Assembly (NCBI GenBank): GCA_031410335.1
Contig: JANNYZ010000030.1
Location: 543-64,542 of the forward strand
Reading direction: 5' to 3'
DNA length: 64,000 bases
Origin: Polaromonas sp.
Lineage (GTDB): Bacteria > Pseudomonadota > Gammaproteobacteria > Burkholderiales > Burkholderiaceae_C
The position numbers and the translations under genes are program-made. Positions 30,821 to 49,059 of the stretch are shown here, one piece after another. The number at the start of each line of letters is the position of its first letter. Position 1 is the first letter of the stretch. Below the pieces are notes generated by a model, which worked only from the letters and a program-made list of their open reading frames with translations, had not been told where the DNA came from and searched no databases.

Positions 30821-31609
30821 TCAGTGCATTTCAGCCAGCATGCCCATCCCCGGCAACTTGTCATCAATGCCCAGCCTGCGCATGGCCAGCCAGTAGGTCG
30901 CCACGTTCACGCCAATCAGCGGCTTGCCAAACCTCTTTTCAATCTCAGGCGTCATGCTCGACACAGGCAGGTTGGTGCCGACGTGGATCAGTGCCTCGGC
31001 CTCGGGGGTGTTGGTAGCTTCAAAGCCCTGCATGATCTGCTCGCGTGTGAAGCGGGCCACGGCGGTAGGGCCAACCGACTTCAAGCCGTGCGTGGCCACC
31101 ACGTCGTAGCCGCAGGACCTGAAAAAATCAGCAATCATGTTGTCTGCGGGCGGCCAGTAGGGCGTGAGGATGGCAATGCGTTTGGGGTTGCCGATCGCCT
31201 GAAGGCCCGCCAGTACCGCGCGTGACGGCGTGATGAAGGGCACGCCGCACAGGGCTTCAAGCCGCTTTTCTTCATCAATCGCGCGCTGACCGTCACCGCG
31301 AAACGAGTGGATGGAATGGCCGTGCGCCACGACGTGCGGCTCGCACACCATCACCAGTTTGAGGGCGTCTTCCAGATTACCCTCTTCAGTTTCGAGTGCT
31401 TTTTTGTAGGCGTCCTGATCGTCGTAGGGGCGCGGTGGCAGGTGCATGCGGGTGACGTGGTTGGTCACACCCGGCGGGCGCATGGCCTCCATTTCGGGCT
31501 GCACCACGGTATTGGTGGCGGGTACCACCACAGCGACTTTGGCGCGGTAGGCAATCGTGTCGGTGCTGGGAGCGCGTGCTATGGAATGGGTCACATGTGG
31601 GTCAGTCAT
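30821..31609 (-). CDS. Asp/Glu racemase-maleate isomerase-AMDase superfamily protein lacking the usual catalytic Cys
   Basis: Start at ATG 31609; VVVPATNTVVQPE, RIAILTPY, VGTNLP, KPLIGVNVATYW. Confidence 0.8.
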   Translation of the reverse strand: MTDPHVTHSIARAPSTDTIAYRAKVAVVVPATNTVVQPEMEAMRPPGVTNHVTRMHLPPRPYDDQDAYKKALETEEGNLEDALKLVMVCEPHVVAHGHSIHSFRGDGQRAIDEEKRLEALCGVPFITPSRAVLAGLQAIGNPKRIAILTPYWPPADNMIADFFRSCGYDVVATHGLKSVGPTAVARFTREQIMQGFEATNTPEAEALIHVGTNLPVSSMTPEIEKRFGKPLIGVNVATYWLAMRRLGIDDKLPGMGMLAEMH

Positions 31610-31613
31610 TGAC

Positions 31614-32615
31614 TTATTCAATTTTGAGGTTGCTGGCTTTGGCGGCCTCGGCCCAGGTGGCTGAATCCGCACGCAGGGTATCGGCAAACTGCGCGGGTGT
31701 ATCGCCAATCGCATCGACGCCCAATTGCCACAGGCGCGCACGCATTTCGGGCTTGCTGACGGCGGACTGCACGGCTGATGCGACGCGGTTGACGATGGCA
31801 GGCGGTGTGCCAGCCGGCGCGACGATACCGTTCCATGTCAAAGTCTTGAAGCCCGGGTAGCCTGATTCTGCCAATGTAGGGACGTCAGGGATCTGTTTGG
31901 CGCGGTCAAGGCTGGACACAGCGATGATGCGGATCTTGCCGCCCTCTGCATGCGGCGCAAGCTCGGACAGGTTACCGAAATACATCTGCACCTGGCCGCC
32001 CAGCAAATCAGCAACGGCAGGGCCGCCACCCTTGTAGCTGATGTGGGTCATGTTGATGCCGGCACGCTTGAGGAAGAGCACGGGCGACAGGTGCGACACG
32101 CTGCCGGAACCGCCCGAAGCAAAGTTGAGCTTGCCGTCGTTCTTTTTGGCGTAGGCCACAAACTCTCGCACATTTTTGGCGGGGACAGAACTGCTGATGG
32201 CCATCACAAACGGGTTGCTGCCAACATTGCTGACGGGGATGAAATCACGCGCGGGATCGAACTTGGTTTTGGTGATGGACGGCAGTATGGCCAGGACCGG
32301 CATCGCCGCCATGAGCAGCGTGTAGCCGTCAGGCGGTGACTGGGCCACAAAGTCTGCAGCAATGGCCCCGTTGGCACCGGCTTTGTTTTCAACAAGGACA
32401 GGCTGGCCCAACGACTGGGAAATACGCTCGGCCGTCAGGCGCGCAATGCCGTCGGTGTTGCCACCGGCTGCAAACGGCACGATGATCTTGATGGGGCGCT
32501 GCGGCCAGTTGCCTGTTTGGGCTTGGCCCAGTTGGGTGGCGCCCAGTAACCCCAGCGCGATGCAGCTGAGGTGAAGGCGACGCGATAAATGGCGTATTGG
32601 GTTGGGGTTGGTCAT
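31614..32615 (-). CDS. Bug/TctC substrate-binding protein
   Basis: Start at ATG 32615; PFAAGGNTD, VENKAGANG, FASGGSGSVSH, YKGGGPA. Confidence 0.95.
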   Translation of the reverse strand: MTNPNPIRHLSRRLHLSCIALGLLGATQLGQAQTGNWPQRPIKIIVPFAAGGNTDGIARLTAERISQSLGQPVLVENKAGANGAIAADFVAQSPPDGYTLLMAAMPVLAILPSITKTKFDPARDFIPVSNVGSNPFVMAISSSVPAKNVREFVAYAKKNDGKLNFASGGSGSVSHLSPVLFLKRAGINMTHISYKGGGPAVADLLGGQVQMYFGNLSELAPHAEGGKIRIIAVSSLDRAKQIPDVPTLAESGYPGFKTLTWNGIVAPAGTPPAIVNRVASAVQSAVSKPEMRARLWQLGVDAIGDTPAQFADTLRADSATWAEAAKASNLKIE

Positions 32616-32638
32616 GGCGGCCTTTTTGAAGCAAAAAA

Positions 32639-33859
32639 TCACGTTATTGCATTCGCACGTTTGATGCTGTTGATCATGGATGACATCAGCAAATACTCAC
32701 GCGTCTTTTGCGGGCTGGCCGCTGTGTCCCGCAGTTCGGCAAATCGTTTTAACCGGGAAGGCAAATCTTTTTCTTCCAGGTTTTGCTTGTTCTTGATGGA
32801 GGCGTTTTGCACGTATTCCATCGCTACCGTGCGCCGCTGTCTTTCATACAAATTCAGCAAGTCATGGTTTGCAGAACCCTGCACAACACGTGCCAGCTTG
32901 TCACCCAAGTTGATGGCGTCATGAATGCCGCTGTTCAAACCAAAGCCGCCCAGTGGGTTGTTGACGTGCGCCGAGTCCCCCGCCAGCAGCACTCGGCCGG
33001 CGCGGAACTGATTGGCTACCCGCTGATGGACGTTGTAAACGCTTTGATGAACGATGGGATAAACAGTCGTTGCCGGCGCGTTGATGGCGCGGTTGATGGC
33101 GTTTTGTGCAAACGCAGGTGCCAGCACTTCTTCGTCTGTCGTGTCGGGCTGTACCGGCAGCGTCATGCGCCACAGGCCGGGCGGCCCTTTGTCCGGCATG
33201 CGGAAAAATGCCAACCACTGCTCTGGGTCACTGATGTAGGCGTTGTCGGCATAACCTGCGGGCGCAAAGTCGTGCGTCGTGCTGATCACGCTATACCGCT
33301 CTGGCCAGGTGTAGCCATCAAACCCTATGCTGGACGCCTTGCGCACCAGGCTGCGGCCACCGTCTGCACCAATCAGCCAGCTGCCAGTCATCTGTACCTC
33401 GCCTTGCGGCGTTTTGGCCACTGCCGTCACGCCGTCGTCGGCTTGCGTTAGCGACACAAACGCATGCGAGAACAGGACTGTTGCGTGACTGTGCTCAAGA
33501 AGCATCTTGAGCAAAATGGGCGTCAATCGGTGCTGCTCCAAGTGCAGCCTGAAAGGAAATAGCGTGTCATCTTTCAACACCGACAAGTCCCACTCCACAA
33601 TCAGGCCGTACTCGCGGTCACGTGACTGCCAGCGCGGCACCTGAATGCCGATGGCCATCATCGCGTCTGTCACGCCGGATGCTTGCAGCATCTCCAGCGT
33701 AGGCGGGTGAAAGGTTCCGGCGCGAAGGTCAATGGTGGTAGCGGGTTCGGCTTCAATCACCGTGACAGCCACGCCCCGACGTGCCAGCTCAAGTGCGCAC
33801 AGCAAACCCACCGGGCCCGCGCCCACAACGATGACTGGGGATGGTTTTTGTATGTTCAT
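32639..33859 (-). CDS. FAD-dependent monooxygenase (class A, PheA/MhpA-like)
   Basis: Start at ATG 33859; VVGAGPVG, LIGADGGRS, LAGDSAHVNNPLGGFGLNSG. Confidence 0.88.
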   Translation of the reverse strand: MNIQKPSPVIVVGAGPVGLLCALELARRGVAVTVIEAEPATTIDLRAGTFHPPTLEMLQASGVTDAMMAIGIQVPRWQSRDREYGLIVEWDLSVLKDDTLFPFRLHLEQHRLTPILLKMLLEHSHATVLFSHAFVSLTQADDGVTAVAKTPQGEVQMTGSWLIGADGGRSLVRKASSIGFDGYTWPERYSVISTTHDFAPAGYADNAYISDPEQWLAFFRMPDKGPPGLWRMTLPVQPDTTDEEVLAPAFAQNAINRAINAPATTVYPIVHQSVYNVHQRVANQFRAGRVLLAGDSAHVNNPLGGFGLNSGIHDAINLGDKLARVVQGSANHDLLNLYERQRRTVAMEYVQNASIKNKQNLEEKDLPSRLKRFAELRDTAASPQKTREYLLMSSMINSIKRANAIT

Positions 33860-34746
33860 TGCAGCGTCACGCGGGCTTCGATGCCAATGTGCCCCGTGTT
33901 GTTGGTTGACCAGAGCTGCCATACCTTCGCCTCGTCGGTTTTGGAGGCATGCAGGTGAAAACCGCTCAAGTCAAAGGTAGGCCGCATGGCCCGAAAGTCA
34001 AACGACTGGATGAACACGCCAGGTGCGATTTGGTTTTCAATGAAACCCAGCAGCAGTGTGGCAATGAGCGGCCCGTGCACCACCAGGCCCGGATAGCCTT
34101 CAACTTGGCGGCAATAGTCCACGTCATAGTGGATGCGGTGGCCATTGAAGGTGGCTGCCGAGTAGCGGTACAGCATCACGGCATCGGCTTTGACGGGCTG
34201 GCTGTGCTCGCCCTGGCGCTCAAAGCGGTGTTCGCCTGCCTGGATTTGCGCGGCGACTGCTTGCAACGCTTCTTTCTCAAGCTCACTGGGCATGCCCCGG
34301 TAAACAATGTCGTGCTCCTCAAGCAGCAACAAGCCTTGGGAGTCTGCGTAGCGATGCGCAACAGTCACAAACACCATCTCGCCCGTGCGGCCACTCTTTC
34401 GATTCACGCTGATGATCTCAGACGCTTTGTTGACGCTGGACCCAACATGAAGGGCGCGATGCCAGGTCAGCCGGCCGCCTGCCCACATGCGGCGTGGCAA
34501 GTCTACCGGTGGCAAAAAAGTGCCGCGCTGCGGGTGGCCGTCGTCACCGAGCAGGGACTGCACCTCCAGCGGGTTGAAGTACAGCCAGTGCCAGCCTGCA
34601 GGCAAGGGCGCAATGTCTGGCTGCTGCATGCGTGCGGCATCATTCAGCGTTGCCGCCATCTGGCGCACCTGAACCGGGCTGATGGTGTCGGTGACGGTTT
34701 GCTGTCGGCCTACCCAGTCTTCAAGGGCCGGTGTTGTAACTGTCAT
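33856..34746 (-). CDS. Double hot-dog MaoC/FAS1-like acyl-CoA hydratase (Meh/Ich-like)
   Basis: Start at ATG 34746; GWHWLYF, DGHP, RRMWAGG, YSAATFNGHRIHYD, GLVVHGPL. Confidence 0.88.
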   Translation of the reverse strand: MTVTTPALEDWVGRQQTVTDTISPVQVRQMAATLNDAARMQQPDIAPLPAGWHWLYFNPLEVQSLLGDDGHPQRGTFLPPVDLPRRMWAGGRLTWHRALHVGSSVNKASEIISVNRKSGRTGEMVFVTVAHRYADSQGLLLLEEHDIVYRGMPSELEKEALQAVAAQIQAGEHRFERQGEHSQPVKADAVMLYRYSAATFNGHRIHYDVDYCRQVEGYPGLVVHGPLIATLLLGFIENQIAPGVFIQSFDFRAMRPTFDLSGFHLHASKTDEAKVWQLWSTNNTGHIGIEARVTLQ

Positions 34747-34747
34747 G

Positions 34748-35917
34748 TCAATACGACCTCGGCATACCCAGCACGTGTTCGCCGACGTACGACAGGATGA
34801 GGTTGGTTGAAATCGGTGCCACCTGGTAAAGCCGAGTTTCCCGGAACTTGCGTTCAATGTCGTATTCGGCGGCAAAGCCAAATCCGCCGTGCGTTTGCAG
34901 GCACACGTTGGCGGCTTCCCACGACGCATCAGCCGCCAGCAGTTTTGACATGTTGGCCTCTGACCCGCAAGGCAAGCCGGCATCAAACAGCTCGCAGGCC
35001 CGATAGCGCATCAGGCTGGCGGCTTCCACGTTCACAAACGCGCGAGCAATCGGGAATTGCACACCCTGGTTTTTGCCAATCGGCCTGTCAAATACCACGC
35101 GGTCGTTGGCATAGGCGCTGGCTTTCTCGACAAACCAGTAACCATCGCCCACGCATTCGGCAGCGATCAAAATACGCTCAGCGTTCAGACCGTCCAGGAT
35201 GTACTTCAGGCCCTGGCCTTCTTCGCCAATCCGGTTTTCAACCGGGATGCGCAGGTTGTCAATGAAGATTTCGTTGGTCTCATGGTTGACCATGTTGCGG
35301 ATCGGCCGCACAGTGATCGACTTGCCGATTTCTTCACGCAAGTCCACCAGGAAAACCGACAGGCCTTCGGTCTTCTTTTTCACATCAGCCAGCGGCGTGG
35401 TGCGTGCCAGCAGCAGCATGTAGTCTGAATGTTGCAGGCGTGATGTCCAGACTTTTTGACCCTGCACCACGTAATGGTCGCCCTTGAGTGTGGCGGTGGT
35501 TTTGAGTTTGGTGGTGTCGCTGCCCGTGGTGGGCTCGGTCACCGCCATCGACTGCATGCGAATCTCGCCGCTGGCGATGCGCGGCAACAGGTCCTGCTTT
35601 TGCTTGGCAGAACCATGGCGCACCACGCAGCCCATCACATACATCTGGCCGTGGCAGGCACCTGAATTGCCGCCGGCACGGTTGATCTCTTCCATCACCA
35701 CGCTGGCCTCGGTCAGCGACAGGCTGGAGCCGCCGTATTCCTCAGGAATCAATGCAGACAGCCAACCTGCGTCGGTCAGGGCCGTGACAAACTTTTCAGG
35801 AAACGCGCGCGCCTCATCGACCTCTTGCCAATAGCGCGAGTCAAATTGCGTGACCACCGCGCGAACGCCTTCGCGCAGCTCGGTAAATTCGTATTTATGG
35901 TTGTTTTGCTTGATCAT
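34748..35917 (-). CDS. Acyl-CoA dehydrogenase
   Basis: IPEEYGG, AVTEPTTGSD, GQKVWTS, HGGFGFAAEYDIER. Confidence 0.93.
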   Translation of the reverse strand: MIKQNNHKYEFTELREGVRAVVTQFDSRYWQEVDEARAFPEKFVTALTDAGWLSALIPEEYGGSSLSLTEASVVMEEINRAGGNSGACHGQMYVMGCVVRHGSAKQKQDLLPRIASGEIRMQSMAVTEPTTGSDTTKLKTTATLKGDHYVVQGQKVWTSRLQHSDYMLLLARTTPLADVKKKTEGLSVFLVDLREEIGKSITVRPIRNMVNHETNEIFIDNLRIPVENRIGEEGQGLKYILDGLNAERILIAAECVGDGYWFVEKASAYANDRVVFDRPIGKNQGVQFPIARAFVNVEAASLMRYRACELFDAGLPCGSEANMSKLLAADASWEAANVCLQTHGGFGFAAEYDIERKFRETRLYQVAPISTNLILSYVGEHVLGMPRSY

Positions 35918-35937
35918 GAAACGTTTGGAAAATAAAT

Positions 35938-36717
35938 TTATTGGGGTGTGGCGTACATCTGCCCGCCGTCGACGTTGATAACCGTGCCCGACAAATAGCT
36001 GGACAGTGGGGAGCAGCTGAAGGCCGTGAGGTCTGCAATTTCCTGTGGCTCGGTCATGCGGCCAAAGGGCATTTTGGCGGTCAGTTCCATCCAGCGATTT
36101 TCATCGCCCAGCTTTTGCGTGGCCTGCGCGCGCAGCATGCCCTCCATGCGGTCACTGCGGGTGGGTGAGGGGTTGATGCCAAACACGCGCACGCCTTTGC
36201 GCGGGCTGGTCGCTCCTACAGCTTGTGTAAACGCCATCAGCGCTGCATTGGCGGTGGAGCCGCAAATGTATTCAGCACGCGGCACGGCACCGGCCATGCC
36301 AATGATGTTGGCAATCACACCGCTGCCGCGCTGCTCCATCTGCGGCAACACGGCGCGTATCAAGTTGATGTAGCCAAAGAGTTTGAGCTCCCAGGCGGCG
36401 CGCCATTTGGCATCGTCTACCGCAGCCAGTGCACCGCCGGGAATCGCGCCTGCGTTGTTGACCAGAATATCAATGGCGCTCGCACCAGACATTAGCACGT
36501 CAATACCGGCCTGCGTGCCGAGGTCAGCAGCGACTGTCCCCGCTGTCACTCCTGTAGCCTGCCGGATGCTGGCCACCGCTTTGGCCAAAGATTCAGCCGA
36601 GCGCGACACGATGATGGGCACAGCACCTTCACGCGCAAAGGTGGTGGCAATCGCCAGGCCAATGCCCTTGGAGCCGCCCGTGACCAGCACGCGCTGGCCT
36701 TGAAGTTTTAAATCCAT
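35938..36717 (-). CDS. Short-chain dehydrogenase/reductase
   Basis: VTGGSKGIG, LVNNAG, INVDGG; the usual YxxxK is not obvious (EYICGSTAN). Confidence 0.85.
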   Translation of the reverse strand: MDLKLQGQRVLVTGGSKGIGLAIATTFAREGAVPIIVSRSAESLAKAVASIRQATGVTAGTVAADLGTQAGIDVLMSGASAIDILVNNAGAIPGGALAAVDDAKWRAAWELKLFGYINLIRAVLPQMEQRGSGVIANIIGMAGAVPRAEYICGSTANAALMAFTQAVGATSPRKGVRVFGINPSPTRSDRMEGMLRAQATQKLGDENRWMELTAKMPFGRMTEPQEIADLTAFSCSPLSSYLSGTVINVDGGQMYATPQ

Positions 36718-36732
36718 TTTTTAAATCTGTAG

Positions 36733-37611
36733 TTAGTGTGAAGGAGCGGCCACCTGCGCGGTGTACCAGTCGGCAATGTCATGGCCCTGCATGAAGCAAA
36801 CGCCGGGTGTTTTCATCAGCAAGTCGAGCATCTGCTCAAACGAGCCAAAGCGGTGCGGTACACCGATCAGGTGCGGGTGCAGGCCCAGTGTCAGGACTCT
36901 AGGCCGGGTTTTGGCTTCACGCTCGAACAATGCCACCGTGCGTTTGAGGCGTTCCAGCATTTCATCGGACGAATGTTTTTCAACCGCGTAAATGATGGAG
37001 TCGTTGATCTCCAGGTTGTACGGCAAGCTCAGCAGCGGGCCGCGCGTCGTCGTCATCCAGTTGGGTACATCGTCCACCACCCAGTCAAACACATAGTCAA
37101 TGCCTGCGGCTTTCAGATTTTCAGGTGTGTCGTGGCTTTCCCGCAGCCCTGGGCCGAGCCAGCCGCGTGGGCGTGTGCCGGTGAACGCTTCAATCATGTC
37201 AAGGCTGGTTTTGATGACGTCCTGCTCTGCTCCAGCGTGGTTCAGCGCCTTTTGATGCACGCCATGGCCAATGAATTCCCAGCCTGCGCTGTGCATGGCC
37301 TCAGCGGCGCGCGGGTAGGCGTCAATCACGCTGGCGTTGAAGCTTGTCGACGCGGTGAGGCCGCGCGAGGTGATGGCATCAATGATGCGCGGCAGGCCGC
37401 AACGCATGCCGTAATCGACCCAGCTGAAGTTGGGCACATCGGGCACGGTTTCCTTGCCGTGCGGCGGCGTGATGATGGTGCGCGGCATGGGCGCGTCAAA
37501 CGACCAGTGCTCCACGTTCACCACCAGGTGCACCAGAATGTTGCCACTTGCGGTTGCCTTGAGTGGTGGGCCTTCGTTAGAAAAGCGGTACGGGATGCGC
37601 GGGTTGGCCAT
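36733..37611 (-). CDS. Polysaccharide-deacetylase-fold amidohydrolase (PuuE-like)
   Basis: LVVNVEHW, DYGMRCG, WEFIGHG, GWLGPG, DWVVDDVP, LGLHPHLIG. Confidence 0.8.
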   Translation of the reverse strand: MANPRIPYRFSNEGPPLKATASGNILVHLVVNVEHWSFDAPMPRTIITPPHGKETVPDVPNFSWVDYGMRCGLPRIIDAITSRGLTASTSFNASVIDAYPRAAEAMHSAGWEFIGHGVHQKALNHAGAEQDVIKTSLDMIEAFTGTRPRGWLGPGLRESHDTPENLKAAGIDYVFDWVVDDVPNWMTTTRGPLLSLPYNLEINDSIIYAVEKHSSDEMLERLKRTVALFEREAKTRPRVLTLGLHPHLIGVPHRFGSFEQMLDLLMKTPGVCFMQGHDIADWYTAQVAAPSH

Positions 37612-37630
37612 AAATGTTGTGAATGAAAAT

Positions 37631-38380
37631 TCAATGTCTGATCTGCTGCAATATCTCGCGTTTCATCGCGTTGAACGCTTCAGATGTAGTGTCTTCAATG
37701 GTGCGCGGTCTGGCCAGCGGTACCGTCATGCGTGCCTGAATTCGGCCGGGGCGGGCCGACATCACGTAAATGGTGTCGGCCAAAAATAGCGCCTCGTCAA
37801 TGTCATGTGTGACAAACACAATGGTTGGCTTGAGCTGCTGCCACACCGACAGCAACAGCTCTTGCATGGTCAGTCGGGTTTGTGCGTCCAGTGCACCGAA
37901 AGGCTCGTCCATCAGCAGCACGCGTGAACCGAGTGTCAGGATGCGCGCAATACCTACCCTTTGGCGCATGCCACCGGACAGTTGCACAGGCAGGTGATTT
38001 TTAAAATCAGACAAACCCACAATATGCAGCATCTCGTTGGCGCGCTCAACATAGTCCGTGGGCGACTGGCCCTGGGTTTTGGGGCCGAAGATCACGTTTT
38101 CCCACACGCTGAGCCACGGGAAAAGCGCCGCCTCCTGAAACACCACGCCACGGTCTGGCCCGGGTTTGTCAACTGGCTCGCCATGCACTAGCAGCGTGCC
38201 ACCGCTGGCTTGTTCAAAGCCAGCCACCAAATTTAAAAGTGTTGACTTGCCGCAACCCGAAGGCCCCAACAGCGCGACAAATTCACCATCGCCGACCTCC
38301 AGGTCGATCTTGTCGAGCGCATGGACGGGCGGCTGTGCCGGGTAGGTCTTGTCGAGTTTTTGAATGCTGATTGCGGACAT
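37631..38380 (-). CDS. ABC transporter ATP-binding protein (TauB/SsuB-type)
   Basis: GPSGCGKST, LSGGMRQRV, LLMDEPFGALD, VTHD. Confidence 0.95.
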   Translation of the reverse strand: MSAISIQKLDKTYPAQPPVHALDKIDLEVGDGEFVALLGPSGCGKSTLLNLVAGFEQASGGTLLVHGEPVDKPGPDRGVVFQEAALFPWLSVWENVIFGPKTQGQSPTDYVERANEMLHIVGLSDFKNHLPVQLSGGMRQRVGIARILTLGSRVLLMDEPFGALDAQTRLTMQELLLSVWQQLKPTIVFVTHDIDEALFLADTIYVMSARPGRIQARMTVPLARPRTIEDTTSEAFNAMKREILQQIRH

Positions 38381-38395
38381 ACGGACTCGAAAGTT

Positions 38396-39196
38396 TTAAT
38401 GGTTTTGAAGAATGCGCCAACGCAGGACGCGCTGCTCTGCAAACACAATCAGGCGGTCACTGAGGTAGCCCATGACGCCAATCGACACCATGTCGGCCAG
38501 CACGATGTCCATGCGGCCCACGTAGTAAGCGTCCCACAGCACATAGCCCAGGCCGGATTTGACAGCTACCATTTCAGACACGATGACGGCTGTCCATGAA
38601 ATGCCCAAACCAATACGCAGACCCGTAAATATCGACGGCATGGCCGACGGAAATACCACCCGCCGCAGCAGTTGCATGCGGGTCGCGCCCATCATCATGG
38701 CGGCGCGCATCAGGTTGCGTTCTACATCGCGCGCACCCTGCGTGGTGTTGACGACGATGGCGTAAAACCCACCCAGGAAAATCAAAAAAATCGAACCCAT
38801 GTCACGGATGCCAAACAGCGCAATTGAAAACGGCAACCAGGCAGTAATGGGGATGGGCCGCAGGCCCTGAATGAAAGGGTCAAACATTTGCGAGGCCAGT
38901 TTGCTCCAGCCAATCATCAAGCCCAGCGGCACACCCAGCAGCGTTGCCAGCGCAAAGCCCTGCGCCACGCGCATGGCTGAGTACTGCACATTGGCCAGCC
39001 AGGTGCCCAAATAAGGATTCAGCCCCATGCCCGGCTTGCCGAACACCCACTGATTAAAGCCCTCCAGCACGGCCAGCGGCGTGGGCACAATGCCGGCCAT
39101 GTTGGGCTGGCTGCCGGCGACTTGCCAGAACACCAACACAGCCACAGGCACCACCGCGCCAAGTAAGAGTTGCTTCATGCGTGACATGGATGACAT
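38396..39196 (-). CDS. ABC transporter permease (TauC/SsuC-type)
   Basis: LRPIPITAW, EAA-like region, SEMVAVKSGLGY. Confidence 0.93.
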   Translation of the reverse strand: MSSMSRMKQLLLGAVVPVAVLVFWQVAGSQPNMAGIVPTPLAVLEGFNQWVFGKPGMGLNPYLGTWLANVQYSAMRVAQGFALATLLGVPLGLMIGWSKLASQMFDPFIQGLRPIPITAWLPFSIALFGIRDMGSIFLIFLGGFYAIVVNTTQGARDVERNLMRAAMMMGATRMQLLRRVVFPSAMPSIFTGLRIGLGISWTAVIVSEMVAVKSGLGYVLWDAYYVGRMDIVLADMVSIGVMGYLSDRLIVFAEQRVLRWRILQNH

Positions 39197-39208
39197 TTGT
39201 TGTTCAGA

Positions 39209-40186
39209 TCAGCGCTTGATCTCGCGCACCATGCTGTCGTCATATAGCGCAGCGGCATCAGTTGCAACATCCTTTTGTACGATACCTTGCTTGAAGGCAG
39301 CATCAGCCTGCAGTCGCACCTGTTCTTTGGTCAGCACGCCGCCCAGCTTGATGATTTTGGATGACTCTTTGGTCACCGCAATCGGCAGGCCGGTGTACTT
39401 TGAATACGCATCGGCAAACGCATCGTTGTTTTTGGCCATCTGCTCTTCAGCATTCATGTACACCCACAAAAAACGGCGAATGGCTTCTTTCTTATTGGTC
39501 ATGGCCTCACGCGATGCGGCCAGCATGCCCAGCTCTGCACCGACTGACTTGGCCTGACTGTATTCCAGACTCTTTGCAAAGTAGGCATCGCCTTCAGCCA
39601 CGGCTTGCGACTCAAACGGCTCCCAGAGCACCATCGCGTCAATATCGCCACGCTTGAGCGCCTGCAAGAAAGCTGTGCCGCCACCCTGAATATTGACCGG
39701 TGTGAAGGTGCTGTAGGGCACTCCTTTTTCAACCATGGTCATGGCCCACTGAAACCACACCGCAGAGCCGGGGGCAATGCCAATCTTTTTACCCGCCAGA
39801 TCTTTCCAGTCATTGATGACCACGCCTTTGCGCACCACCAGATTTTTCAGCGAGCCCCCTACACCTGTCAGGCCCACCAGGTTCTTGCTGCCTTGCGATG
39901 CTGCAATGGCCAAGTCACCAGGGCCGACAGCCGACACATCTACCGAGTTGGACAGCAGGGCGGTCCGTGCGTCGGCGTAGCGCACAAATTCAGCGCGCTT
40001 GACATCGATGTTGAATTTTTTAAGTTCTTCTTCAATGTTGAGCATGGGCGACAAGTGCCCCACTTTGACGAAGCCAACCGTTAGCGTTTCACGCTGTGCC
40101 AGGGGTGCAGGTGCAGGCCCGATGGCCTGAACGGCGGTGGTGATGGCCGTCATGAAGACGGCTGTTATCGCTGCAAAAAGTTTCAT
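39209..40186 (-). CDS. ABC transporter substrate-binding protein (TauA/SsuA/NMT1-type)
   Basis: Signal peptide; DLAGKKIG, GDIDAMVLWEP. Confidence 0.88.
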   Translation of the reverse strand: MKLFAAITAVFMTAITTAVQAIGPAPAPLAQRETLTVGFVKVGHLSPMLNIEEELKKFNIDVKRAEFVRYADARTALLSNSVDVSAVGPGDLAIAASQGSKNLVGLTGVGGSLKNLVVRKGVVINDWKDLAGKKIGIAPGSAVWFQWAMTMVEKGVPYSTFTPVNIQGGGTAFLQALKRGDIDAMVLWEPFESQAVAEGDAYFAKSLEYSQAKSVGAELGMLAASREAMTNKKEAIRRFLWVYMNAEEQMAKNNDAFADAYSKYTGLPIAVTKESSKIIKLGGVLTKEQVRLQADAAFKQGIVQKDVATDAAALYDDSMVREIKR

Positions 40187-40233
40187 GATTCAAACTCCAT
40201 TCAGGTTAAAAAACACACAAGGAAATCCAGACA

Positions 40234-41010
40234 CTACTGACCATTGAAATTCGGTACCCGCTTTTCGGCAAACGCCTTGCGGCCTTCCGCATAGTCGCTG
40301 CTGGCAAAACAGGCTTTGACTTGTCTATCTACTGTCTGCACATCAGCATCGAGGCTCCCTGAAAGCAGCGTACTGAACGCGTTCTTGGCCGTTGCAATGG
40401 TCATGGGGGCGTTGCTTGCAATTTCTGCACCCGTTTGCGCAGCATAGGCAAATACATCCTCATGCACTGAATTGATCACACCCATGCGTTCTGCTGCTGC
40501 AGCGTCCAGTACACGGGCCGTGTAAAACACTTCGCTGGCGCGCGCTACCCCCAGCACATCGAGCAGCCGTTTCATACCCTTGAGTGCATAGCCCAGGCCC
40601 AGCCGCGCGGCAGGCATTCGAAACCGTGCATTGGGTGCAGCGTAGCGCATGTCGCATGCCATCGCCAGGCCCAAACCACCGCCATAACAAATACCGCTGA
40701 TGGCGGCAATCACCGGGCGCGGAAACTGCGCAAGGGCTGTCTGGGCGCGGTCAACTGCCGCATCGTAAGTAGCAACATTGGCGGGGTCGTTGCGCTGCGT
40801 ATCAAACTCGCTGATGTCAGCGCCCGATACAAAAGCCTTGTCGCCATCACCGCGCAAAATAACACAGCGAACCGATGTGTCGTTGCGCAATATCTCCAGC
40901 GTGTCGCCCAGCTTTGCCCACATCGCCATCGACATGGCGTTGTGTCGGCTGGGGTTAGACAGCGTGATGGTCGCCACGTGGCTTTCAATCTGGTGGGTCA
41001 CATCAGCCAT
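40234..41010 (-). CDS. Enoyl-CoA hydratase/isomerase
   Basis: Start at ATG 41010; AFVSGADISEF, GICYGGG, DYAEGRKAFAEKRVPNF. Confidence 0.92.
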   Translation of the reverse strand: MADVTHQIESHVATITLSNPSRHNAMSMAMWAKLGDTLEILRNDTSVRCVILRGDGDKAFVSGADISEFDTQRNDPANVATYDAAVDRAQTALAQFPRPVIAAISGICYGGGLGLAMACDMRYAAPNARFRMPAARLGLGYALKGMKRLLDVLGVARASEVFYTARVLDAAAAERMGVINSVHEDVFAYAAQTGAEIASNAPMTIATAKNAFSTLLSGSLDADVQTVDRQVKACFASSDYAEGRKAFAEKRVPNFNGQ

Positions 41011-41014
41011 ATTT

Positions 41015-42211
41015 TTAAACGACTCCGTTTGAATGAAACTGTTCAATGTCAGTTTCAGAATAACCGGCTTCAGCCAACACCTCGTCGGTGTGTTGTCCCC
41101 AACCTGGTGCCTGCGCCACCACTGTTGCCGGGGTGCGCTGTAGCACCACTGGCTGGTTGATGTAGTGCATTTCCTTGCCGAAGTCAGTTACCAAGGATGT
41201 CGTCACACCCAGGTGCTGAACCTGCTCGTCTTCAAACACCTGGGGTACGGTGTACACCGGACCGGCGGGGACGCCTGCATCGTTGAGCAATTTGACCCAA
41301 TGCTGCACGCTTTGGGTTTTGAAAATATCAGCCAGCAGGGGGGTGAGCCTCTCACGGTGCTTGACGCGCAGTGGCTCGGTTTTAAACTCTTCGTCGTTCA
41401 ACCACTCAGGGCGATACAGCAGCTTGCACAAGCGGATCCAATTGCCTTCGCCCGATGCGCCGAGGTTAAACACGCCGTCGGCTGCTTCAAACAAACCCAT
41501 CGGGCTGCTGGTCGGGTGGTCGTTGCCGACTTGTATCGGCAAGTCGTTGTCGTTCAAATAGCGCGCCATCTGGAAATCCATCATGGCGATTTGGGAATGG
41601 AGCAGCGACGCATGCACCCACTGGCCCTTGCCGGAGACTTCGCGCTCCAGTAGAGCCGTCAAAATACCCAGCGCGGCATACAGACCAGCGCTCATGTCAG
41701 CCACTGCCAGCCCGGCGCGTACCGGGCCATGGCCGGGCAAACCTGTCACGGACATCAGCCCGCCCATGCCCTGCACGATCTGGTCGAAGCCGGGGCGACC
41801 CGCCAGCGGGCCATCCTGGCCAAAGCCTGAAATACTGGCCAAAATAATCCGTGGATTCACAGCCGCCAAAGATTCGTAGTCAATGCCGAGCTTGGTTTTG
41901 ACATCGGGCCGCCAGTTTTCAACCAGCACATCGGCGTCTTTCACCAGGCGCATCAACACATCACGCGCGCCTGGTTTTTTCAGGTTGAGCGTCATCGACC
42001 GCTTGTTGCGGTTGATGTTCTGAAAGTCTCCGCCCTCGCGGTTGGCGGCAAACATGGCTTCGTTTGGATCAATGCCGGGGGGTGGCTCGATGCGAATCAC
42101 GTCGGCACCAAAGTCAGTCAGCATGCGCACGCAATTGGGGCCAGCGCGCACGCGGGACAAGTCAAGGACGCGAAACCTGGCCAGCGCGCTGGAAGCCTGA
42201 ATTTTGGGCAT
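41015..42211 (-). CDS. Class III (CaiB/BaiF) CoA transferase
   Basis: RVLDLSR, FGADVIRIE, NRNKRS, ENWRP, SGFGQDGP, catalytic-type D in VADMSAG. Confidence 0.93.
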   Translation of the reverse strand: MPKIQASSALARFRVLDLSRVRAGPNCVRMLTDFGADVIRIEPPPGIDPNEAMFAANREGGDFQNINRNKRSMTLNLKKPGARDVLMRLVKDADVLVENWRPDVKTKLGIDYESLAAVNPRIILASISGFGQDGPLAGRPGFDQIVQGMGGLMSVTGLPGHGPVRAGLAVADMSAGLYAALGILTALLEREVSGKGQWVHASLLHSQIAMMDFQMARYLNDNDLPIQVGNDHPTSSPMGLFEAADGVFNLGASGEGNWIRLCKLLYRPEWLNDEEFKTEPLRVKHRERLTPLLADIFKTQSVQHWVKLLNDAGVPAGPVYTVPQVFEDEQVQHLGVTTSLVTDFGKEMHYINQPVVLQRTPATVVAQAPGWGQHTDEVLAEAGYSETDIEQFHSNGVV

Positions 42212-42224
42212 GTTTAGGATTTAC

Positions 42225-42259
42225 GTATATTTATTAAAATGTTATAAATATAAATATAC
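42225..42259. promoter_or_regulatory. AT-rich palindromic candidate GntR operator
   Basis: TATATTTAT (42226-42234)-N9-ATAAATATA (42244-42252) is a perfect inverted repeat in the 88-bp divergent intergenic region. Confidence 0.5.
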
Positions 42260-42299
42260 AGCAATAAAAGATACATGGCAACATGAGAAACTCGCATCC

Positions 42300-43040
42300 A
42301 TGAAACCCGCCAAAAAGCCTGTGACTCGCGCCAAAACAGCCAAAGCCATCAAGCCTGCGACTGCTGACGCCAAGTTCACCAAGGCCAGCGACAAGATACG
42401 CCTGGACATTGAAACCGCCATCAAAGACGGCGCACTGCTGCCAGGCGACCCGATTGACGAAGCCCAGCTGGCCAGCCAGTACAAGGTGTCACGCACGCCG
42501 ATACGGGAGGCATTGATCCAGTTACAAGCCCAGGGCATGCTGACCAGCTTGCCACGCGGCGGTATGGTAGTGGCCAAGATGGACTTGCAGCAGCTGCTGC
42601 AACTATGGGAGCTGCTGGCCGAGCTCGAAGGCGTAGCGGTGCGCCTGGCGTGCCAGCGCATGAGCACCGAGGAGCGCGAAGCCATCGCCCAGCACCATGC
42701 CAAAAGTCGCGCTGTGGCCGAGGCCGACGACATGGCGGGCTGGCAACAAAGCAACCTGCAGTTTCACGAGCTGATTTACCGCGCCTGCCGAAACCCCTAC
42801 CTGCGCCAGGAGGTGCTGCGCATGCGGGCCCGCACTGGCTACTACCGCCGCCACGCCTTTGGCGCGCTGGGTCAGGTCAAGGCCTCATTCGAGCAGCATA
42901 CCCAGATCGTCGACGCTTTCAACAAAAGCGATGGCGAAGCAGCCGCCCAAGCCATGCTGGCCCACATGCGCCCAGCCAGTGATGCCAAGGGGTTGACAGA
43001 CTTTATTGTGAATTTGCCGAAGGAACTGCTGGCACGGTGA
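42300..43040 (+). CDS. GntR family regulator with FCD domain
   Basis: Start at ATG 42300; LASQYKVSRTPIREAL wHTH; NLQFHELIY...NPYL; EHTQI-like FCD motif. Confidence 0.93.
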   Translation: MKPAKKPVTRAKTAKAIKPATADAKFTKASDKIRLDIETAIKDGALLPGDPIDEAQLASQYKVSRTPIREALIQLQAQGMLTSLPRGGMVVAKMDLQQLLQLWELLAELEGVAVRLACQRMSTEEREAIAQHHAKSRAVAEADDMAGWQQSNLQFHELIYRACRNPYLRQEVLRMRARTGYYRRHAFGALGQVKASFEQHTQIVDAFNKSDGEAAAQAMLAHMRPASDAKGLTDFIVNLPKELLAR

Positions 43041-43293: not shown

Positions 43294-43611
43294 ATGAACA
43301 ACACTACACGCCGCGTATTTTTTATGCAGGTTGCCGCTGGTACTTCGGCGCTGGCAGCAAGCCAAGTCATGGCCCAGGCTCCTGCCATGGTCAATGAAAA
43401 AGATCCTGCTGCCGCTGGTTTGGGCTACGTCGCTGACACCACCAAGGTTGATGCCAAGAAATACCCAAAGCACGCCAACGAGCAAATGTGCAGCAATTGC
43501 CAGCTGTACGCCGGTAAAGCCAAGGAAGCAGCTGGCCCATGCCCACTGTTTGCTGGCAAGCAGGTCGCGGCCAAAGGCTGGTGCAGCGCTTACGTTAAAA
43601 AAGCCGCTTAA
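43294..43611 (+). CDS. High-potential iron-sulfur protein (HiPIP), Tat-exported
   Basis: TTRRVFF Tat leader; LGY, CSNC...C...GWCSAY four-Cys HiPIP pattern. Confidence 0.93.
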   Translation: MNNTTRRVFFMQVAAGTSALAASQVMAQAPAMVNEKDPAAAGLGYVADTTKVDAKKYPKHANEQMCSNCQLYAGKAKEAAGPCPLFAGKQVAAKGWCSAYVKKAA

Positions 43612-43666: not shown

Positions 43667-43942
43667 GCATTTGATTACGAGGTCAGCCACATGAGCAACG
43701 CCAGCAGCCGTTAAGAAAAGGGCAATGCCTTGTGTTTGTTTTGATAGAGCGCACCACACGGCCATCATCAAAAACAAGCCTGAAATCACGTTCCAAAGGT
43801 AATCCTTCGGGGCAATCCCTCGACCAGTCATACGGTGATGAACCAACAGCACAAGGACTTCCAAGGCTGTGACGACCATGACCAATTGCAACAGCTTGCC
43901 GCTCAGTACCCATTCATCCATGACCGCGTAAGCTGAGTTCAC
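43655..43942 (-). CDS. Small hypothetical membrane protein coupled to bchP
   Basis: About 3 hydrophobic segments; GTG start overlaps the bchP stop (GTGA). The start may be 43921. Confidence 0.7.
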   Translation of the reverse strand: MNSAYAVMDEWVLSGKLLQLVMVVTALEVLVLLVHHRMTGRGIAPKDYLWNVISGLFLMMAVWCALSKQTQGIALFLTAAGVAHVADLVIKCKKR

Positions 43943-45144
43943 ACTTTGGCCAGGCCCAGCAGATGGCCCATGTCCTTGATGAAAATGCGCACATGAGCCA
44001 TGGGTTTTTTGCGCACCAGCTTTTTATTCATGTAGGACTCAAAAGTCAGTTGCTGAACGTCACGGTCTTCGCACATTTTGACAAAGCGTTCGCGCCGCTT
44101 TTCGCTGCCATACCAGAACCACTGCATGACGCCCAGCACGCCAAAAACCAGGCCGTGGGCCTTCATAAAGCGTTTGCGGGCCAGCTTCAGGGTGCTAACG
44201 TCACCTGTCTGCAGCAGCTCATGCACCGATTGGGCAGCCAGCTGGCCGCCGTACATGGCGTAGTAAATGCCTTCGCCTGAGGCTGGAGCCACCACGCCAG
44301 CAGCGTCGCCTGCCAGCACCACGTCGCGGCCGTTGTCCCAGCGCTTGAGGGGCTTCATGGGCAGCGGCGCCCCTTCACGGCGCAAGACCTCGGCGGTTTC
44401 CAGGCCGGCGATTTGCCGCAACTGTCCCACCGCACCGCGCAGTGAAAAGCCTTTGTCGGCGCTTCCGGTACCAATACTCAGCGTATCGCCATGCGGGAAC
44501 ACCCAGCCGTAAAAATCAGGCGACAGCTTGCCCTGGTAGTACACGTCGCAGCGCGTGTCGTCATAGCCCGCAGGTTTGACGGCTGGGGCGCGTACGATCT
44601 CGTGGTACGCAAAAACACATTTGGGGTGGCTCGCGCCCGGCACGGTCTGGCGTGCCACTTCAGACCTTGCGCCGTCGGCGCCAATGATGCTGCGCGCGCG
44701 AACGCGGGCAGCAAAGCCCCCGGATTTTTGCGCATGTGAGCGTGCTTCAAAATGCACCACAGCCATGCCGTCGGGGTCACGCTCGATGCGTTCAAAAGTG
44801 CCAATTCGGCGTACTGCACCGCTGGTTGCAGCGCGCTCGCGAAGCCATTCGTCAAACTCTTCACGATTGACCATGCCCACAAAACCGTTGTCGATAGGAA
44901 TGTCGACCTGGTTGTTTTTGGGTGAAACCATGCGTGCCGATGTGGCGCGTGCAACCAGCAGTTTGTCGGGGATGGCAAAGTCTTTGATGAGGCGAGGGGG
45001 AATTGCGCCTCCACAGGGCTTCACGCGGCCTGCACGGTCAAGCAGCAAGACAGATCGGCCCCTCCGTGCCAGATCATGCGCCGCTGTTGCGCCAGCTGGA
45101 CCGCCGCCCACAATCACCACGTCAAAAGTTTCTGTCATGCTCAT
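43939..45144 (-). CDS. bchP: Geranylgeranyl reductase
   Basis: VVGGGPAG, KPCGGAIPP, YGWVFPHG, GDAAG...GEGIYYA; ATG 45144 has an AAAGG RBS. Confidence 0.96.
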   Translation of the reverse strand: MSMTETFDVVIVGGGPAGATAAHDLARRGRSVLLLDRAGRVKPCGGAIPPRLIKDFAIPDKLLVARATSARMVSPKNNQVDIPIDNGFVGMVNREEFDEWLRERAATSGAVRRIGTFERIERDPDGMAVVHFEARSHAQKSGGFAARVRARSIIGADGARSEVARQTVPGASHPKCVFAYHEIVRAPAVKPAGYDDTRCDVYYQGKLSPDFYGWVFPHGDTLSIGTGSADKGFSLRGAVGQLRQIAGLETAEVLRREGAPLPMKPLKRWDNGRDVVLAGDAAGVVAPASGEGIYYAMYGGQLAAQSVHELLQTGDVSTLKLARKRFMKAHGLVFGVLGVMQWFWYGSEKRRERFVKMCEDRDVQQLTFESYMNKKLVRKKPMAHVRIFIKDMGHLLGLAKV

Positions 45145-45162
45145 GTTGTTCACCTTTAGTGA

Positions 45163-46527: not shown

Positions 46528-47435
46528 GCGCTGACTCCCGGCAAGCCTGCAGACAGGCTTCGCAATGCAAATGCGCTGATCATCATGCCCGCGACAAACA
46601 GCGGCACACCAAAGCCGCTGTACCACAGCGCACGCTGCGTGACGCTGGCCAAAAACCGCCACATCATCATGAGCTGGAGCACAACCAGAGCGGCAATGGC
46701 CAGTGCATGCCAGGGGCGTTCCCAGCCCAGCAGCAACACGATCACTACCAGCTGCGACACCACCATCACGGCGCATGCCACGCGGGCAGCATTTTGAACG
46801 CCCAATTGAACGGGCAGGGAGCGCACGCCCATCTGGCGATCACCCTCTACGGCTTTAAAGTCATTGAGCGTCATGATGCCGTGGGTGCCCACGCTGTATA
46901 GCGCCGCCAACAGCAGTGAACGGCTGTCAGGCATGATTCCGCCAGCCATCACAGCCGCACCGGTTACCCAGGCAATCCCTTCGTAGCTGAAACCGCAAGC
47001 AGCGTTGCCCCACCAACCATTTTCTTTCAGGCGCACGGGCGGCGCACTGTAGGCCCAGGCGAGCAGAAGCCCCACCATCGCTGCCCCAAAGCCCCAAGGC
47101 CCCAGCACGGTCGCCACCAGTAATGAAATCATGGTCCACAGCACCGCCAGATACAAACCCCAGCGCCCAGGCATTCGGCCTGAAGGAATCGGCCTTTGCG
47201 GCTCGTTGATGGCATCCACATGGCGGTCAAACCAGTCATTCACCGCTTGGCTGGTGGCGCAAACGAATGGTCCGGCCAGAGCGACGCCAACGACGGCCAG
47301 TATCCATTTGCCCTGCATGGCCATCCCGGAAGCCACCACGCCGCAAGTGAATGCCCACATGGGCGGAAACCACGTGATCGGCTTGAAAAGCTCAGCCACG
47401 GTAGACAGGCTGGGCCTGGGGTTGATTACAGACAT
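46524..47435 (-). CDS. bchG: Bacteriochlorophyll synthase
   Basis: KPITWFPPMWA, NDWFDRHVDAINEP-x-RPIPSGR, NDFKAVEGD. Confidence 0.96.
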   Translation of the reverse strand: MSVINPRPSLSTVAELFKPITWFPPMWAFTCGVVASGMAMQGKWILAVVGVALAGPFVCATSQAVNDWFDRHVDAINEPQRPIPSGRMPGRWGLYLAVLWTMISLLVATVLGPWGFGAAMVGLLLAWAYSAPPVRLKENGWWGNAACGFSYEGIAWVTGAAVMAGGIMPDSRSLLLAALYSVGTHGIMTLNDFKAVEGDRQMGVRSLPVQLGVQNAARVACAVMVVSQLVVIVLLLGWERPWHALAIAALVVLQLMMMWRFLASVTQRALWYSGFGVPLFVAGMMISAFALRSLSAGLPGVSA

Positions 47436-47438
47436 AGT

Positions 47439-47482
47439 TGTATTATTTGATTGACAATGTATAGTGTCAACTATTATTTACA
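47439..47482. promoter_or_regulatory. Tandem PpsR/CrtJ boxes in the bchG / ppsR-paralogue divergent promoter
   Basis: Two exact TGT-N12-ACA palindromes (47439-47456 and 47465-47482), 8 bp apart, each containing a TTGACA in opposite orientation. Confidence 0.85.
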
Positions 47483-49029: not shown

Positions 49030-49059
49030 CAGGCTGCCCGATGCACAGGCTGAACGGAT

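Follow-up and report, generated by a model that had tools for sequence, protein, structure and literature searches.

The locus described here is a run of twelve genes facing a divergent GntR-type regulator gene at positions 30821-43040 of a 64-kb stretch of Polaromonas sp. DNA (contig JANNYZ010000030.1, assembly GCA_031410335.1; hereafter the window, to which the coordinates refer), and its closest described counterparts belong to several different pathways. The itaconate/methylsuccinate clusters of Pseudomonas aeruginosa and Cupriavidus necator encode Ict, Ich, Ccl, a (RS)-methylsuccinyl-C4-coenzyme A (CoA) dehydrogenase and a methylsuccinate isomerase (PMC12290011). The dehydrogenase activity was assigned to the acyl-CoA dehydrogenase (ACAD) of the cluster by Gonner et al. 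in 2025, and the isomerase is a PrpD-like protein whose gene always lies beside that of the dehydrogenase (PMC12290011); the PrpD family acts on C4-dicarboxylate substructures. In the fungal nicotinate route, the imide made by the short-chain dehydrogenase/reductase (SDR) HxnW is opened by HxnM, after which HxnN, an amidase, frees ammonia; hxnM and hxnW form a conserved gene pair (PMC9304392, PMC8478523). HxnM and the CIH protein of P. putida are cyclic-imide hydrolases of the CE4 type (PMC11424739, PMC9304392), and the PuuE-family protein BpIH, which is 91% identical to the protein of structure 3S6O, is an imidase (PMC11424739).

The window locus shares parts with both systems. It has an ACAD in common with the itaconate/methylsuccinate clusters and a MaoC hydratase that resembles their Ich, and in its relatives the ACAD gene adjoins one for a RipC/Ccl-like lyase or a PrpD-like protein. 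Unlike those clusters, the window has neither lyase nor PrpD-like gene, and the operon adds an ATP-binding cassette (ABC) importer, a CE4 protein, an SDR, a crotonase-fold protein that is not a hydratase and, in relatives, an amidase. The fungal route has the same three classes of enzyme, in the same sequence, if the relatives' amidase is counted, and the imidase and SDR genes are paired in both; they differ in that the fungal product is not handled as a CoA ester, that the amidase is missing from the window and that HxnM belongs to an HpPgdA-like CE4 subgroup, whereas the operon's CE4 protein is nearer PuuE (70 versus 33 bits). We tentatively read the locus as one GntR-controlled operon for a small N-heterocycle with a -CO-NH-CO- (imide- or ureide-like) or hydroxy-lactam unit, a reading to which we give not quite an even chance.

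No published bacterial pathway matching the whole cluster was found in the literature on the gene combination, on cyclic-imide clusters or on the oxidative pyrimidine pathway. The joining of a NitT/TauT importer with a distinct type of family III CoA-transferase, a crotonase-fold protein without the catalytic glutamates and an Amdase-fold protein with a single cysteine appears to be undescribed. An earlier note on this DNA, made from the sequence alone, had found no match to a described pathway. This holds for the cluster as a whole but not for its parts, as the ACAD-MaoC pair corresponds to the methylsuccinate route of 2025 and the SDR-CE4(-amidase) set mirrors HxnW/HxnM/HxnN; the methylsuccinate route and the fungal SDR-imidase-amidase logic are thus already known. 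Two further routes have a similar ring to them. In its use of isonicotinate, Mycobacterium sp. INA1 reportedly goes through a CoA thioester with the help of a reductase, an imidase and an amidase, and Blastobacter is said to convert cyclic imides by an imidase and a half-amidase to the dicarboxylate. To our knowledge the genes of neither are sequence-defined, and the likeness is by description only, a lead rather than a test.

Gene organisation and conservation

The genes and the control region are as follows, in the order read from the regulator into the operon.

42300..43040, plus strand, GntR/FCD-family transcriptional regulator (Pfam GntR and FCD; below every NCBIfam equivalog cut-off)
42212..42299, no strand, divergent control region, 88 nt, AT-rich
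41015..42211, minus strand, family III (CaiB/BaiF) CoA-transferase, dicarboxylate type (PF02515, 390 bits)
40234..41010, minus strand, crotonase-fold protein, possibly decarboxylase-like (PF00378; alternative TTG start at 41046)
39209..40186, minus strand, periplasmic binding protein of the NMT1/SsuA (NitT/TauT) family (NMT1, NMT1_2 and Phosphonate-bd; signal peptide)
38396..39196, minus strand, ABC permease, NitT/TauT type (PF00528; below the SaoP, NtrB, SsuC and TauC cut-offs)
37631..38380, minus strand, ABC ATPase, NitT/TauT type (PF00005; TauB model 245 bits, cut-off 357)
36733..37611, minus strand, PuuE-like CE4-fold cyclic amidohydrolase, proposed imidase (PF01522 Polysacc_deac_1; TIGR03212, 101.4 bits)
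35938..36717, minus strand, SDR (adh_short; NCBIfam subfamily PRK06125, 365 bits, above its cut-off of 261)
34748..35917, minus strand, ACAD, probable (RS)-methylsuccinyl-C4-CoA dehydrogenase (three ACAD domains)
33856..34746, minus strand, MaoC double hot-dog hydratase, itaconyl/mesaconyl-CoA hydratase-like (PF13452)
32639..33859, minus strand, group A FAD monooxygenase (FADMO), PnpA/HspB-like, accessory (PF01494 FAD_binding_3, 220 bits)
31614..32615, minus strand, Bug/TctC-family periplasmic carboxylate receptor (PF03401, 239 bits)
30821..31609, minus strand, Amdase/maleate-isomerase-fold protein with one conserved Cys (PF17645)

The earlier description of a GntR gene divergent from a single twelve-gene run was borne out: all 13 genes are intact open reading frames, and the twelve between 30821 and 42211 share the minus strand. 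Pfam, NCBIfam and PDB searches agreed with each of the domain calls made at that time, and the gaps, then put at about 50 nt at most, measure -4 to +47 nt after three start codons were shifted by one codon each. A single nucleotide separates the ACAD stop from the MaoC start, the MaoC stop and FADMO start overlap by 4 nt (33856-33859), and the SDR-ACAD border is 20 nt. No terminator-like site was found between the twelve genes. Within the control region there is only one promoter-like site directed at the operon (TTGCCA-17-TATATT, 42281-42253, minus strand; 10 of 12 positions match), together with a perfect 10-nt inverted repeat (42225-42234 and 42250-42259). The core of the region is kept in a close relative, L002, but only one arm of the repeat is, and in such AT-rich DNA the repeat could be due to chance. 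An Rfam scan of the window gave no riboswitch or other RNA. The spacing, the single promoter-like site and the absence of terminators are consistent with transcription as one operon. Compared with two relatives, the 13 genes have ratios of non-synonymous to synonymous substitution (dN/dS) of 0.005-0.17 at dS 0.4-1.8, lowest in the ACAD gene (0.005) and 0.06-0.10 in the regulator gene, and all are under strong purifying selection. Judged from its sequence, the locus is real and widely conserved, and it is probably a twelve-gene operon with its regulator.

Conservation was followed through the CE4 gene. A species-level pattern scan, with one genome per species, found CE4 relatives in at least 507 genomes, and the best 80 of these, with CE4 proteins 76-96% identical, made up the synteny sample. 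They come mostly from the abundant freshwater genera Limnohabitans, Polaromonas and Rhodoferax, and nearly all keep the cluster. Genes were counted over the 37 loci in which the CE4 gene is flanked by 6.5 kb or more on either side. This cluster-level synteny search, a check that the earlier note had proposed, showed that a core order of regulator, opposed to (amidase), family III CoA-transferase, crotonase-fold protein, NitT/TauT ABC importer, CE4 protein and SDR, is kept in 31-36 of the 37 relatives (Polaromonas, Rhodoferax, Limnohabitans, Hylemonella and others). The ABC genes are found in 36, the SDR gene in 35, the regulator (again divergent) and CoA-transferase genes in 34 each and the crotonase-fold gene in 31, an arrangement conserved far beyond chance. 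The core extends to plant-associated Azospirillum, an alphaproteobacterium, where a plasmid carries a LysR gene opposite amidase, CoA-transferase, crotonase-fold, ABC, CE4 and SDR genes, and to a Variovorax replicon with a GntR gene opposite amidase, CoA-transferase, crotonase-fold, CE4 and PrpD-like genes. Among isolates, the cluster is found in Limnohabitans sp. 2KL-51, JirII-31, G3-2 and WS1, Polaromonas sp. CG_9.7, Azospirillum argentinense Az39, A. brasilense and Variovorax paradoxus VAI-C.

The remaining genes fall into two accessory modules, which lie either downstream of the SDR gene or upstream of the regulator gene. One is of the methylsuccinate/itaconate kind; in it the ACAD is accompanied either by an Ich-like MaoC and a Ccl lyase or by a true hydratase together with a PrpD-like protein. 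The other is the trio of FADMO, Bug receptor and Amdase-fold protein. The ACAD, Bug and Amdase-fold genes each occur in 23 of the 37 relatives, the FADMO gene in 19, always alongside Bug and Amdase-fold genes, and the MaoC gene in 13. A RipC/Ccl-like lyase is encoded inside the cluster in 10 relatives; it is an HpcH/HpaI lyase lying between MaoC and FADMO, with the itaconate-pathway lyase RipC/Ccl as its best model. In another 10 a true hydratase (ECH2), with both catalytic Glu residues, replaces the MaoC-Ccl pair, and seven of these also have the PrpD-like gene.

In most relatives the regulator and CoA-transferase genes have an amidase-signature amidase gene between them. Its product evolves fast (38-55% identity, versus more than 75% for neighbouring genes) and scores about equally on AtzE and allophanate-hydrolase-type models. 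The window lineage has, by comparison of sequences, cleanly lost the amidase and the Ccl-like lyase, as have its nearest relatives: the amidase is missing in the closest of them, L001, L002 and L004, and in a Limnohabitans lineage, and the lyase in L003 and L004. The losses leave the 88-nt control region and the 4-nt MaoC/FADMO overlap (compare L010, 3990-5354 and 13802-14635). Extra genes at variant loci (a second SDR, a 2-hydroxyacid dehydrogenase, a 2-oxoacid:ferredoxin oxidoreductase-like and a ketopantoate-reductase-like protein) showed no consistent pattern.

Enzymes and transporters of the operon

The only specific model matched by the CE4 protein is that of the PuuE allantoinase (TIGR03212), and its 101.4 bits, under the cut-off of 424.6, led us to reject allantoin. 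Its PDB matches are PuuE (1Z7A/3CL6) and 3S6O, at about 1e-18; an exact-protein look-up gave no match. As in PuuE and BpIH (PMC11424739), the CE4 fold comes without the Asp-His-His metal triad of deacetylases (where these have TFDD and H-S/T-x-x-H, it has NVEHW and H116-G-V-H-Q120, with no DD and no +4 His), two conserved histidines of PuuE are matched in the alignment by His116 and His245, and an invariant N32-x-E34 matches their N-x-E, Glu34 being mapped by motif and not by alignment. Unlike them, the protein has an invariant Gln120 in place of the Trp of the PuuE Glu-His-Trp triad, and no purine or ureide genes lie nearby. The SDR gene adjoins the CE4 gene in 35 of the 37 relatives, in Azospirillum and at a Mesorhizobium paralog locus, the tightest association in the cluster. 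The PuuE-type residues, the imidases among its relatives, the pairing with the SDR and the relatives' amidase together lead us to read the CE4 enzyme as a probable cyclic amide (imide or ureide) hydrolase, in keeping with the ring or amide hydrolysis supposed earlier.

CE4 homologues of 44% identity or less, from Mesorhizobium, Streptomyces and Cupriavidus plasmids, were treated as paralogs, their gene neighbourhoods being unrelated. At one of these loci (L083, Mesorhizobium plasmid pB2-1-1, 4358-9894) a 44% identical CE4 paralog is again paired with an SDR, and the pair adjoins an asparaginase, a tartrate dehydrogenase and an enolase-superfamily gene. A trio of CE4 protein, SDR and amidohydrolase seems to be a recurring building block.

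The best NCBIfam model for the CoA-transferase is succinate-glutarate CoA-transferase (308 bits, cut-off 750), with succinyl-CoA:mesaconate CoA-transferase at 256 bits (cut-off 700), and its PDB matches are SUGCT and formyl-CoA transferase. The ACAD is 73-80% identical to ACADs of itaconate/methylsuccinate clusters in Ralstonia, Paraburkholderia and Cupriavidus, whose genes adjoin Ich-like, Ccl-like, Ict-like (family III CoA-transferase) or PrpD-like genes; the comparison was with the proteins of these three genera. It is probably a (RS)-methylsuccinyl-C4-CoA dehydrogenase. MaoC matches the itaconyl-CoA hydratase of P. aeruginosa in the PDB (8KHG/8HUC, E = 2e-58) and is only 43-45% identical to Ich of the canonical clusters. 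Given these likenesses, the lower half of the operon would follow the known route from methylsuccinyl-CoA through mesaconyl-CoA to citramalyl-CoA, with a lyase supplied from elsewhere in the genome. The CoA-dependent processing of a branched dicarboxylate, proposed in the earlier note, is supported by the ACAD, the Ich-like MaoC and the RipC/Ccl-like lyase of relatives.

The crotonase-fold protein had been called an enoyl-CoA hydratase. The fold is right (ECH_1; NCBIfam subfamily PRK06127, 322 bits, above its cut-off of 291) but the activity is not, as Gly126 and Ala146 occupy both catalytic Glu positions (GGGxE and PE motifs) in 50 of 50 orthologues. Both Glu residues are kept in PaaF and CaiD of E. 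coli and in the ECH2 of relatives. Arg148 and Tyr153 are invariant. The one counterpart of Tyr153 among the proteins aligned is the Tyr of ScpB from E. coli (GVPY), the position being Pro in CaiD, PaaF, PaaG and a relative's true hydratase. By these residues it is solid that the Comamonadaceae proteins are not canonical hydratases; that they are decarboxylase-like is our hypothesis, and a weak one. The resemblance to E. coli ScpB (YgfG)/ScpC lies in a crotonase fold without the second Glu, the Tyr at GxxY and a neighbouring CoA-transferase; the differences lie in the identity (31% to ScpB, compared with 30% to CaiD), in a CoA-transferase of family III and not of the ScpC type, and in the lack of a mutase. 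A PDB search with the protein gave no clue to a ligand.

For the importer, the binding protein scores 105 bits on SsuA_fam (cut-off 163.5) and 61 bits on the taurine model (cut-off 304), so it is no taurine or sulfonate equivalog, and its PDB matches are all at E = 2e-6 or weaker, again without a ligand clue. Taurine and sulfonates (TauABC, SsuABC) were rejected on the scores of all three components (binding protein 61 against 304 bits, permease 123 against 342, ATPase 245 against 357). By these scores the importer can be placed only in the wider NitT/TauT family.

In the FADMO trio, the monooxygenase has PnpA (2e-63) and HspB (9e-55) as its closest solved structures. Flavin hydroxylation had been put among the early steps of the pathway; a place in the core is contradicted by its restriction, as part of an accessory trio, to about half of the relatives. 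The Bug receptor is an orphan, with no TctAB genes near it, and its gene travels with that of the Amdase-fold protein. The latter had been noted as a racemase-fold enzyme. The fold is confirmed, by a full-length alignment to maleate isomerase in the PDB (7e-16), but Cys90, the first catalytic Cys (32 of 33 orthologues), is left alone, the position of the second being an invariant Gly212; the invariant HVGTNLP segment, where arylmalonate decarboxylase (AMDase) would have its second Cys, is free of Cys. Since the second Cys is absent, the protein is no two-thiol isomerase or racemase. Taking AMDase to have Gly74 and Cys188 at these positions, the Cys/Gly pair looks inverted, although the local alignment at the first position is ambiguous and this mapping presumptive. 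Its scores are far below cut-off on the AMDase model (NF052327, 57.8 against 225 bits) and on EutA (77 bits), the second of which led us to reject ectoine. The family is small (598 proteins), and its gene stands beside the core cluster in all 33 loci and two further contexts examined.

The trio recalls the maleamate branch (NicC/HspB, NicX/Hpo, NicD/Nfo, NicF/Ami, NicE/Iso) through its HspB-like FADMO and maleate-isomerase-fold protein, and through the relatives' amidase; the operon differs from that branch in having no ring-cleaving dioxygenase, in the loss of the second Cys and in its added CoA-dependent enzymes. The classical maleamate pathway was rejected on the missing Cys.

A second Bug/TctC receptor, 40% identical to that of the cluster, is encoded elsewhere in the window, on the minus strand at 3565-7921. 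Its neighbours there are a MocR-type GntR-aminotransferase regulator and a gamma-glutamyltranspeptidase, and this locus, too, is small, uncharacterised and concerned with a nitrogen compound.

A proposed route and its alternatives

On the gene content and order, conservation, selection, active-site residues and ACAD identity set out above, we infer the substrates and the order of steps as follows. The NitT/TauT-type system would import the compound, and the SDR would make or adjust a ring carbonyl, for example from a hydroxy-lactam to an imide, by analogy with HxnW. The CE4 enzyme, whose fold and residues are those of PuuE, would open the ring to a half-amide, from which the amidase would free ammonia in most relatives; in the window this step may be served in trans or bypassed. 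The family III CoA-transferase would then activate a substituted C4 or C5 dicarboxylate, and the crotonase-fold protein would act on the CoA ester other than by hydration; most likely it would decarboxylate an alpha-carboxy acyl-CoA in the manner of ScpB. The ACAD would oxidise methylsuccinyl-C4-CoA, or a compound close to it, to mesaconyl-C4-CoA, which the Ich-like MaoC would hydrate to citramalyl-CoA; a Ccl lyase, necessarily encoded elsewhere in this genome, would split this into acetyl-CoA and pyruvate. The FADMO, Bug receptor and Amdase-fold protein travel together and may serve a related carboxylated substrate, as a feeder or stereochemistry module.

Several observations weigh against this scheme. 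It needs both an amidase and a Ccl-like lyase, and neither was found anywhere in the 64-kb window. The CE4 protein is, by sequence, distant from PuuE, with Gln replacing Trp and the Glu placed by motif. One variant cluster (L092, JGI 3300047524 contig, 7621-20319) has the ACAD, Bug, Amdase-fold, amidase, CoA-transferase, crotonase-fold, ABC and SDR genes without CE4, and the ring-opening enzyme is therefore dispensable in some versions. At 32-34% identity to Ict of the canonical itaconate clusters, the CoA-transferase is no Ict orthologue. The ACAD and MaoC, missing from about a third of the relatives, may represent a separate pathway parked alongside. The crotonase-fold protein scores 171.6 bits on the methylmalonyl-CoA decarboxylase model (NF008506), under the cut-off of 257; His66, which we take to be catalytic in ScpB, is Ala in it; and the Azospirillum orthologue (L081, 8328-9137) keeps the first Glu (GGGLELA versus GGGLGLA in the 50 Burkholderiales), while sharing the lost second Glu and the conserved Tyr. 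An alpha-carboxy compound is also no obvious intermediate en route to methylsuccinyl-CoA. Finally, a search of RNA-seq runs found the sequence present only in metagenomic DNA runs, from freshwater sediment.

The patchy occurrence and varying positions of the ACAD, MaoC and FADMO genes, together with the existence of free-standing ACAD-Ich-Ccl clusters elsewhere, would also suit a mosaic in which a core N-compound operon (CoA-transferase to SDR), the ACAD-MaoC pair and the FADMO-Bug-Amdase-fold trio act independently on different substrates. We think this unlikely. In the window, translational coupling joins the modules, whose borders measure 20 nt, 1 nt and a 4-nt overlap, the ACAD module has no CoA-transferase of its own here, the Amdase-fold family was found only beside the core in the contexts examined, and three C4/C5-dicarboxylate modules (ACAD-Ich-Ccl, ACAD-ECH2-PrpD-like and PrpD-like alone) are joined to the same core. 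Another candidate substrate is a pyrimidine-type ureide (barbiturate, 5-methylbarbiturate or a dihydropyrimidine-like compound), which CE4 would open, the amidase would split at the acyl-urea and a ScpB-like enzyme would decarboxylate as the CoA ester of (methyl)malonate. PuuE's own substrate is a cyclic ureide, NMT1/ThiY-type binding proteins bind pyrimidines, the relatives' amidase leans no more to AtzE than to allophanate hydrolase, the crotonase-fold protein has the ScpB-like Tyr without the hydratase Glu, and the Amdase fold is associated with malonate decarboxylation. That proposal nevertheless leaves the methylsuccinyl-CoA dehydrogenase orthologue, the Ich-like hydratase, the Ccl lyase and the PrpD-like protein unexplained, the cluster has no uracil/thymine dehydrogenase, and the literature on the oxidative pyrimidine pathway gave no match; we consider it rather improbable.

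In a bacterial counterpart of the hydrolytic, non-dioxygenolytic routes for hydroxypyridines or nicotinate, a hydroxypyridine carboxylate would be taken up by Bug and hydroxylated by FADMO; the ring, turned into a piperidine-dione, would be opened by CE4, and deamidation would lead to a glutarate-type acid handled as a CoA ester. PnpA and HspB, nearest to the FADMO, are both ipso-hydroxylases, the SDR-imidase-amidase order is that of HxnW/M/N, the best model of the CoA-transferase is succinate-glutarate CoA-transferase and a Bordetella Bug protein reportedly binds nicotinate. Against this, half of the relatives lack the trio, the cluster has no ene-reductase and no molybdenum hydroxylase, the ACAD matches the methylsuccinyl-CoA dehydrogenase type and not glutaryl-CoA dehydrogenase, and the Amdase-fold protein has one Cys too few for a maleate isomerase of the two-Cys kind, so that we allow this route only a small chance. 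That the CE4 protein is a true N-deacetylase or deformylase, in an operon that handles a betaine, or an amino or sulfonate compound with an N-acyl group, through TauABC-like import and Cai-like steps, is highly improbable: its Pfam family of polysaccharide deacetylases, the TauABC-like importer and the echo of CaiB, CaiD and CaiA in the CoA-transferase, crotonase and ACAD speak for it, but the CE4 protein has PuuE-type residues in place of the metal triad, all Tau, Ssu and Cai models are far below their cut-offs, CaiD has both Glu residues where the crotonase-fold protein has neither, and the ACAD groups with itaconate-cluster ACADs. The carnitine cai operon itself was rejected on the same grounds (CaiB model 126 against 413 bits, CaiA model 163 against 540; catalytic residues differing from CaiD).

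Under our preferred reading of one operon for a small imide-, ureide- or hydroxy-lactam-type ring, the cluster would link hydrolytic removal of N from the ring to the methylsuccinate/itaconate CoA route. A more specific form of it, to which we give only a slim chance, is a dedicated route for alkyl-substituted maleimides or succinimides used by freshwater, alga-associated, phototrophic Burkholderiales. Tetrapyrrole-derived alkyl maleimides and succinimides occur in nature; they are monopyrrolic breakdown or photo-oxidation products of chlorophylls, bacteriochlorophylls and bilins, with methyl, methyl-ethyl or carboxy substituents. If this proved true, the environment would have in such imides a source of methylsuccinate-type acids that has gone unrecognised, and two enzyme activities would be new: the decarboxylation of alpha-carboxy-succinyl-CoA esters by a crotonase-fold protein, and that of an Amdase-fold enzyme with a single Cys, its Cys and Gly inverted relative to arylmalonate decarboxylase. 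Naming the substrate would in any case give functions to two subfamilies with odd active sites, the Glu-less crotonases and the single-Cys Amdase-fold proteins; the latter, with the "other" Cys, might show the opposite stereochemistry and may interest biocatalysis. The origin of environmental methylsuccinate was until recently called unclear by those who described its route (PMC12290011), so that a named substrate would give freshwater microbial ecology one more source of carbon and nitrogen.

Flanking genes and other loci in the window

The genes on either side of the operon are unrelated to it. On the left is a convergent Na+/H+ exchanger gene. On the right, 900 bp separate the GntR gene from bchP; this gap holds a gene for a high-potential iron-sulfur protein (HiPIP; 43294-43611, plus strand), and beyond it lies the edge of a photosynthesis gene cluster. 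This cluster runs from 43939 to 62125 and beyond and encodes a bchP-like geranylgeranyl reductase, PucC/LhaA, a bchG-type UbiA prenyltransferase, a second PucC, two PAS regulators (one with a Fis-type helix-turn-helix, PpsR-like), a B12-binding AerR/PpaA-like protein, a bchN/B/L-type protochlorophyllide reductase, bchH and bchM. The organism is therefore a (bacterio)chlorophyll-based phototroph, and the host is a phototrophic Comamonadaceae bacterium near Polaromonas metagenome-assembled genomes. The adjacency of operon and photosynthesis cluster is common only to the closest relatives, L001 and L004.

Two other genes in the window, those for a B12-binding radical SAM protein with DUF4080 (14457-16055, minus strand) and an RNase II/RNB-family exoribonuclease (27797-29299, minus strand), are of the ordinary housekeeping type.

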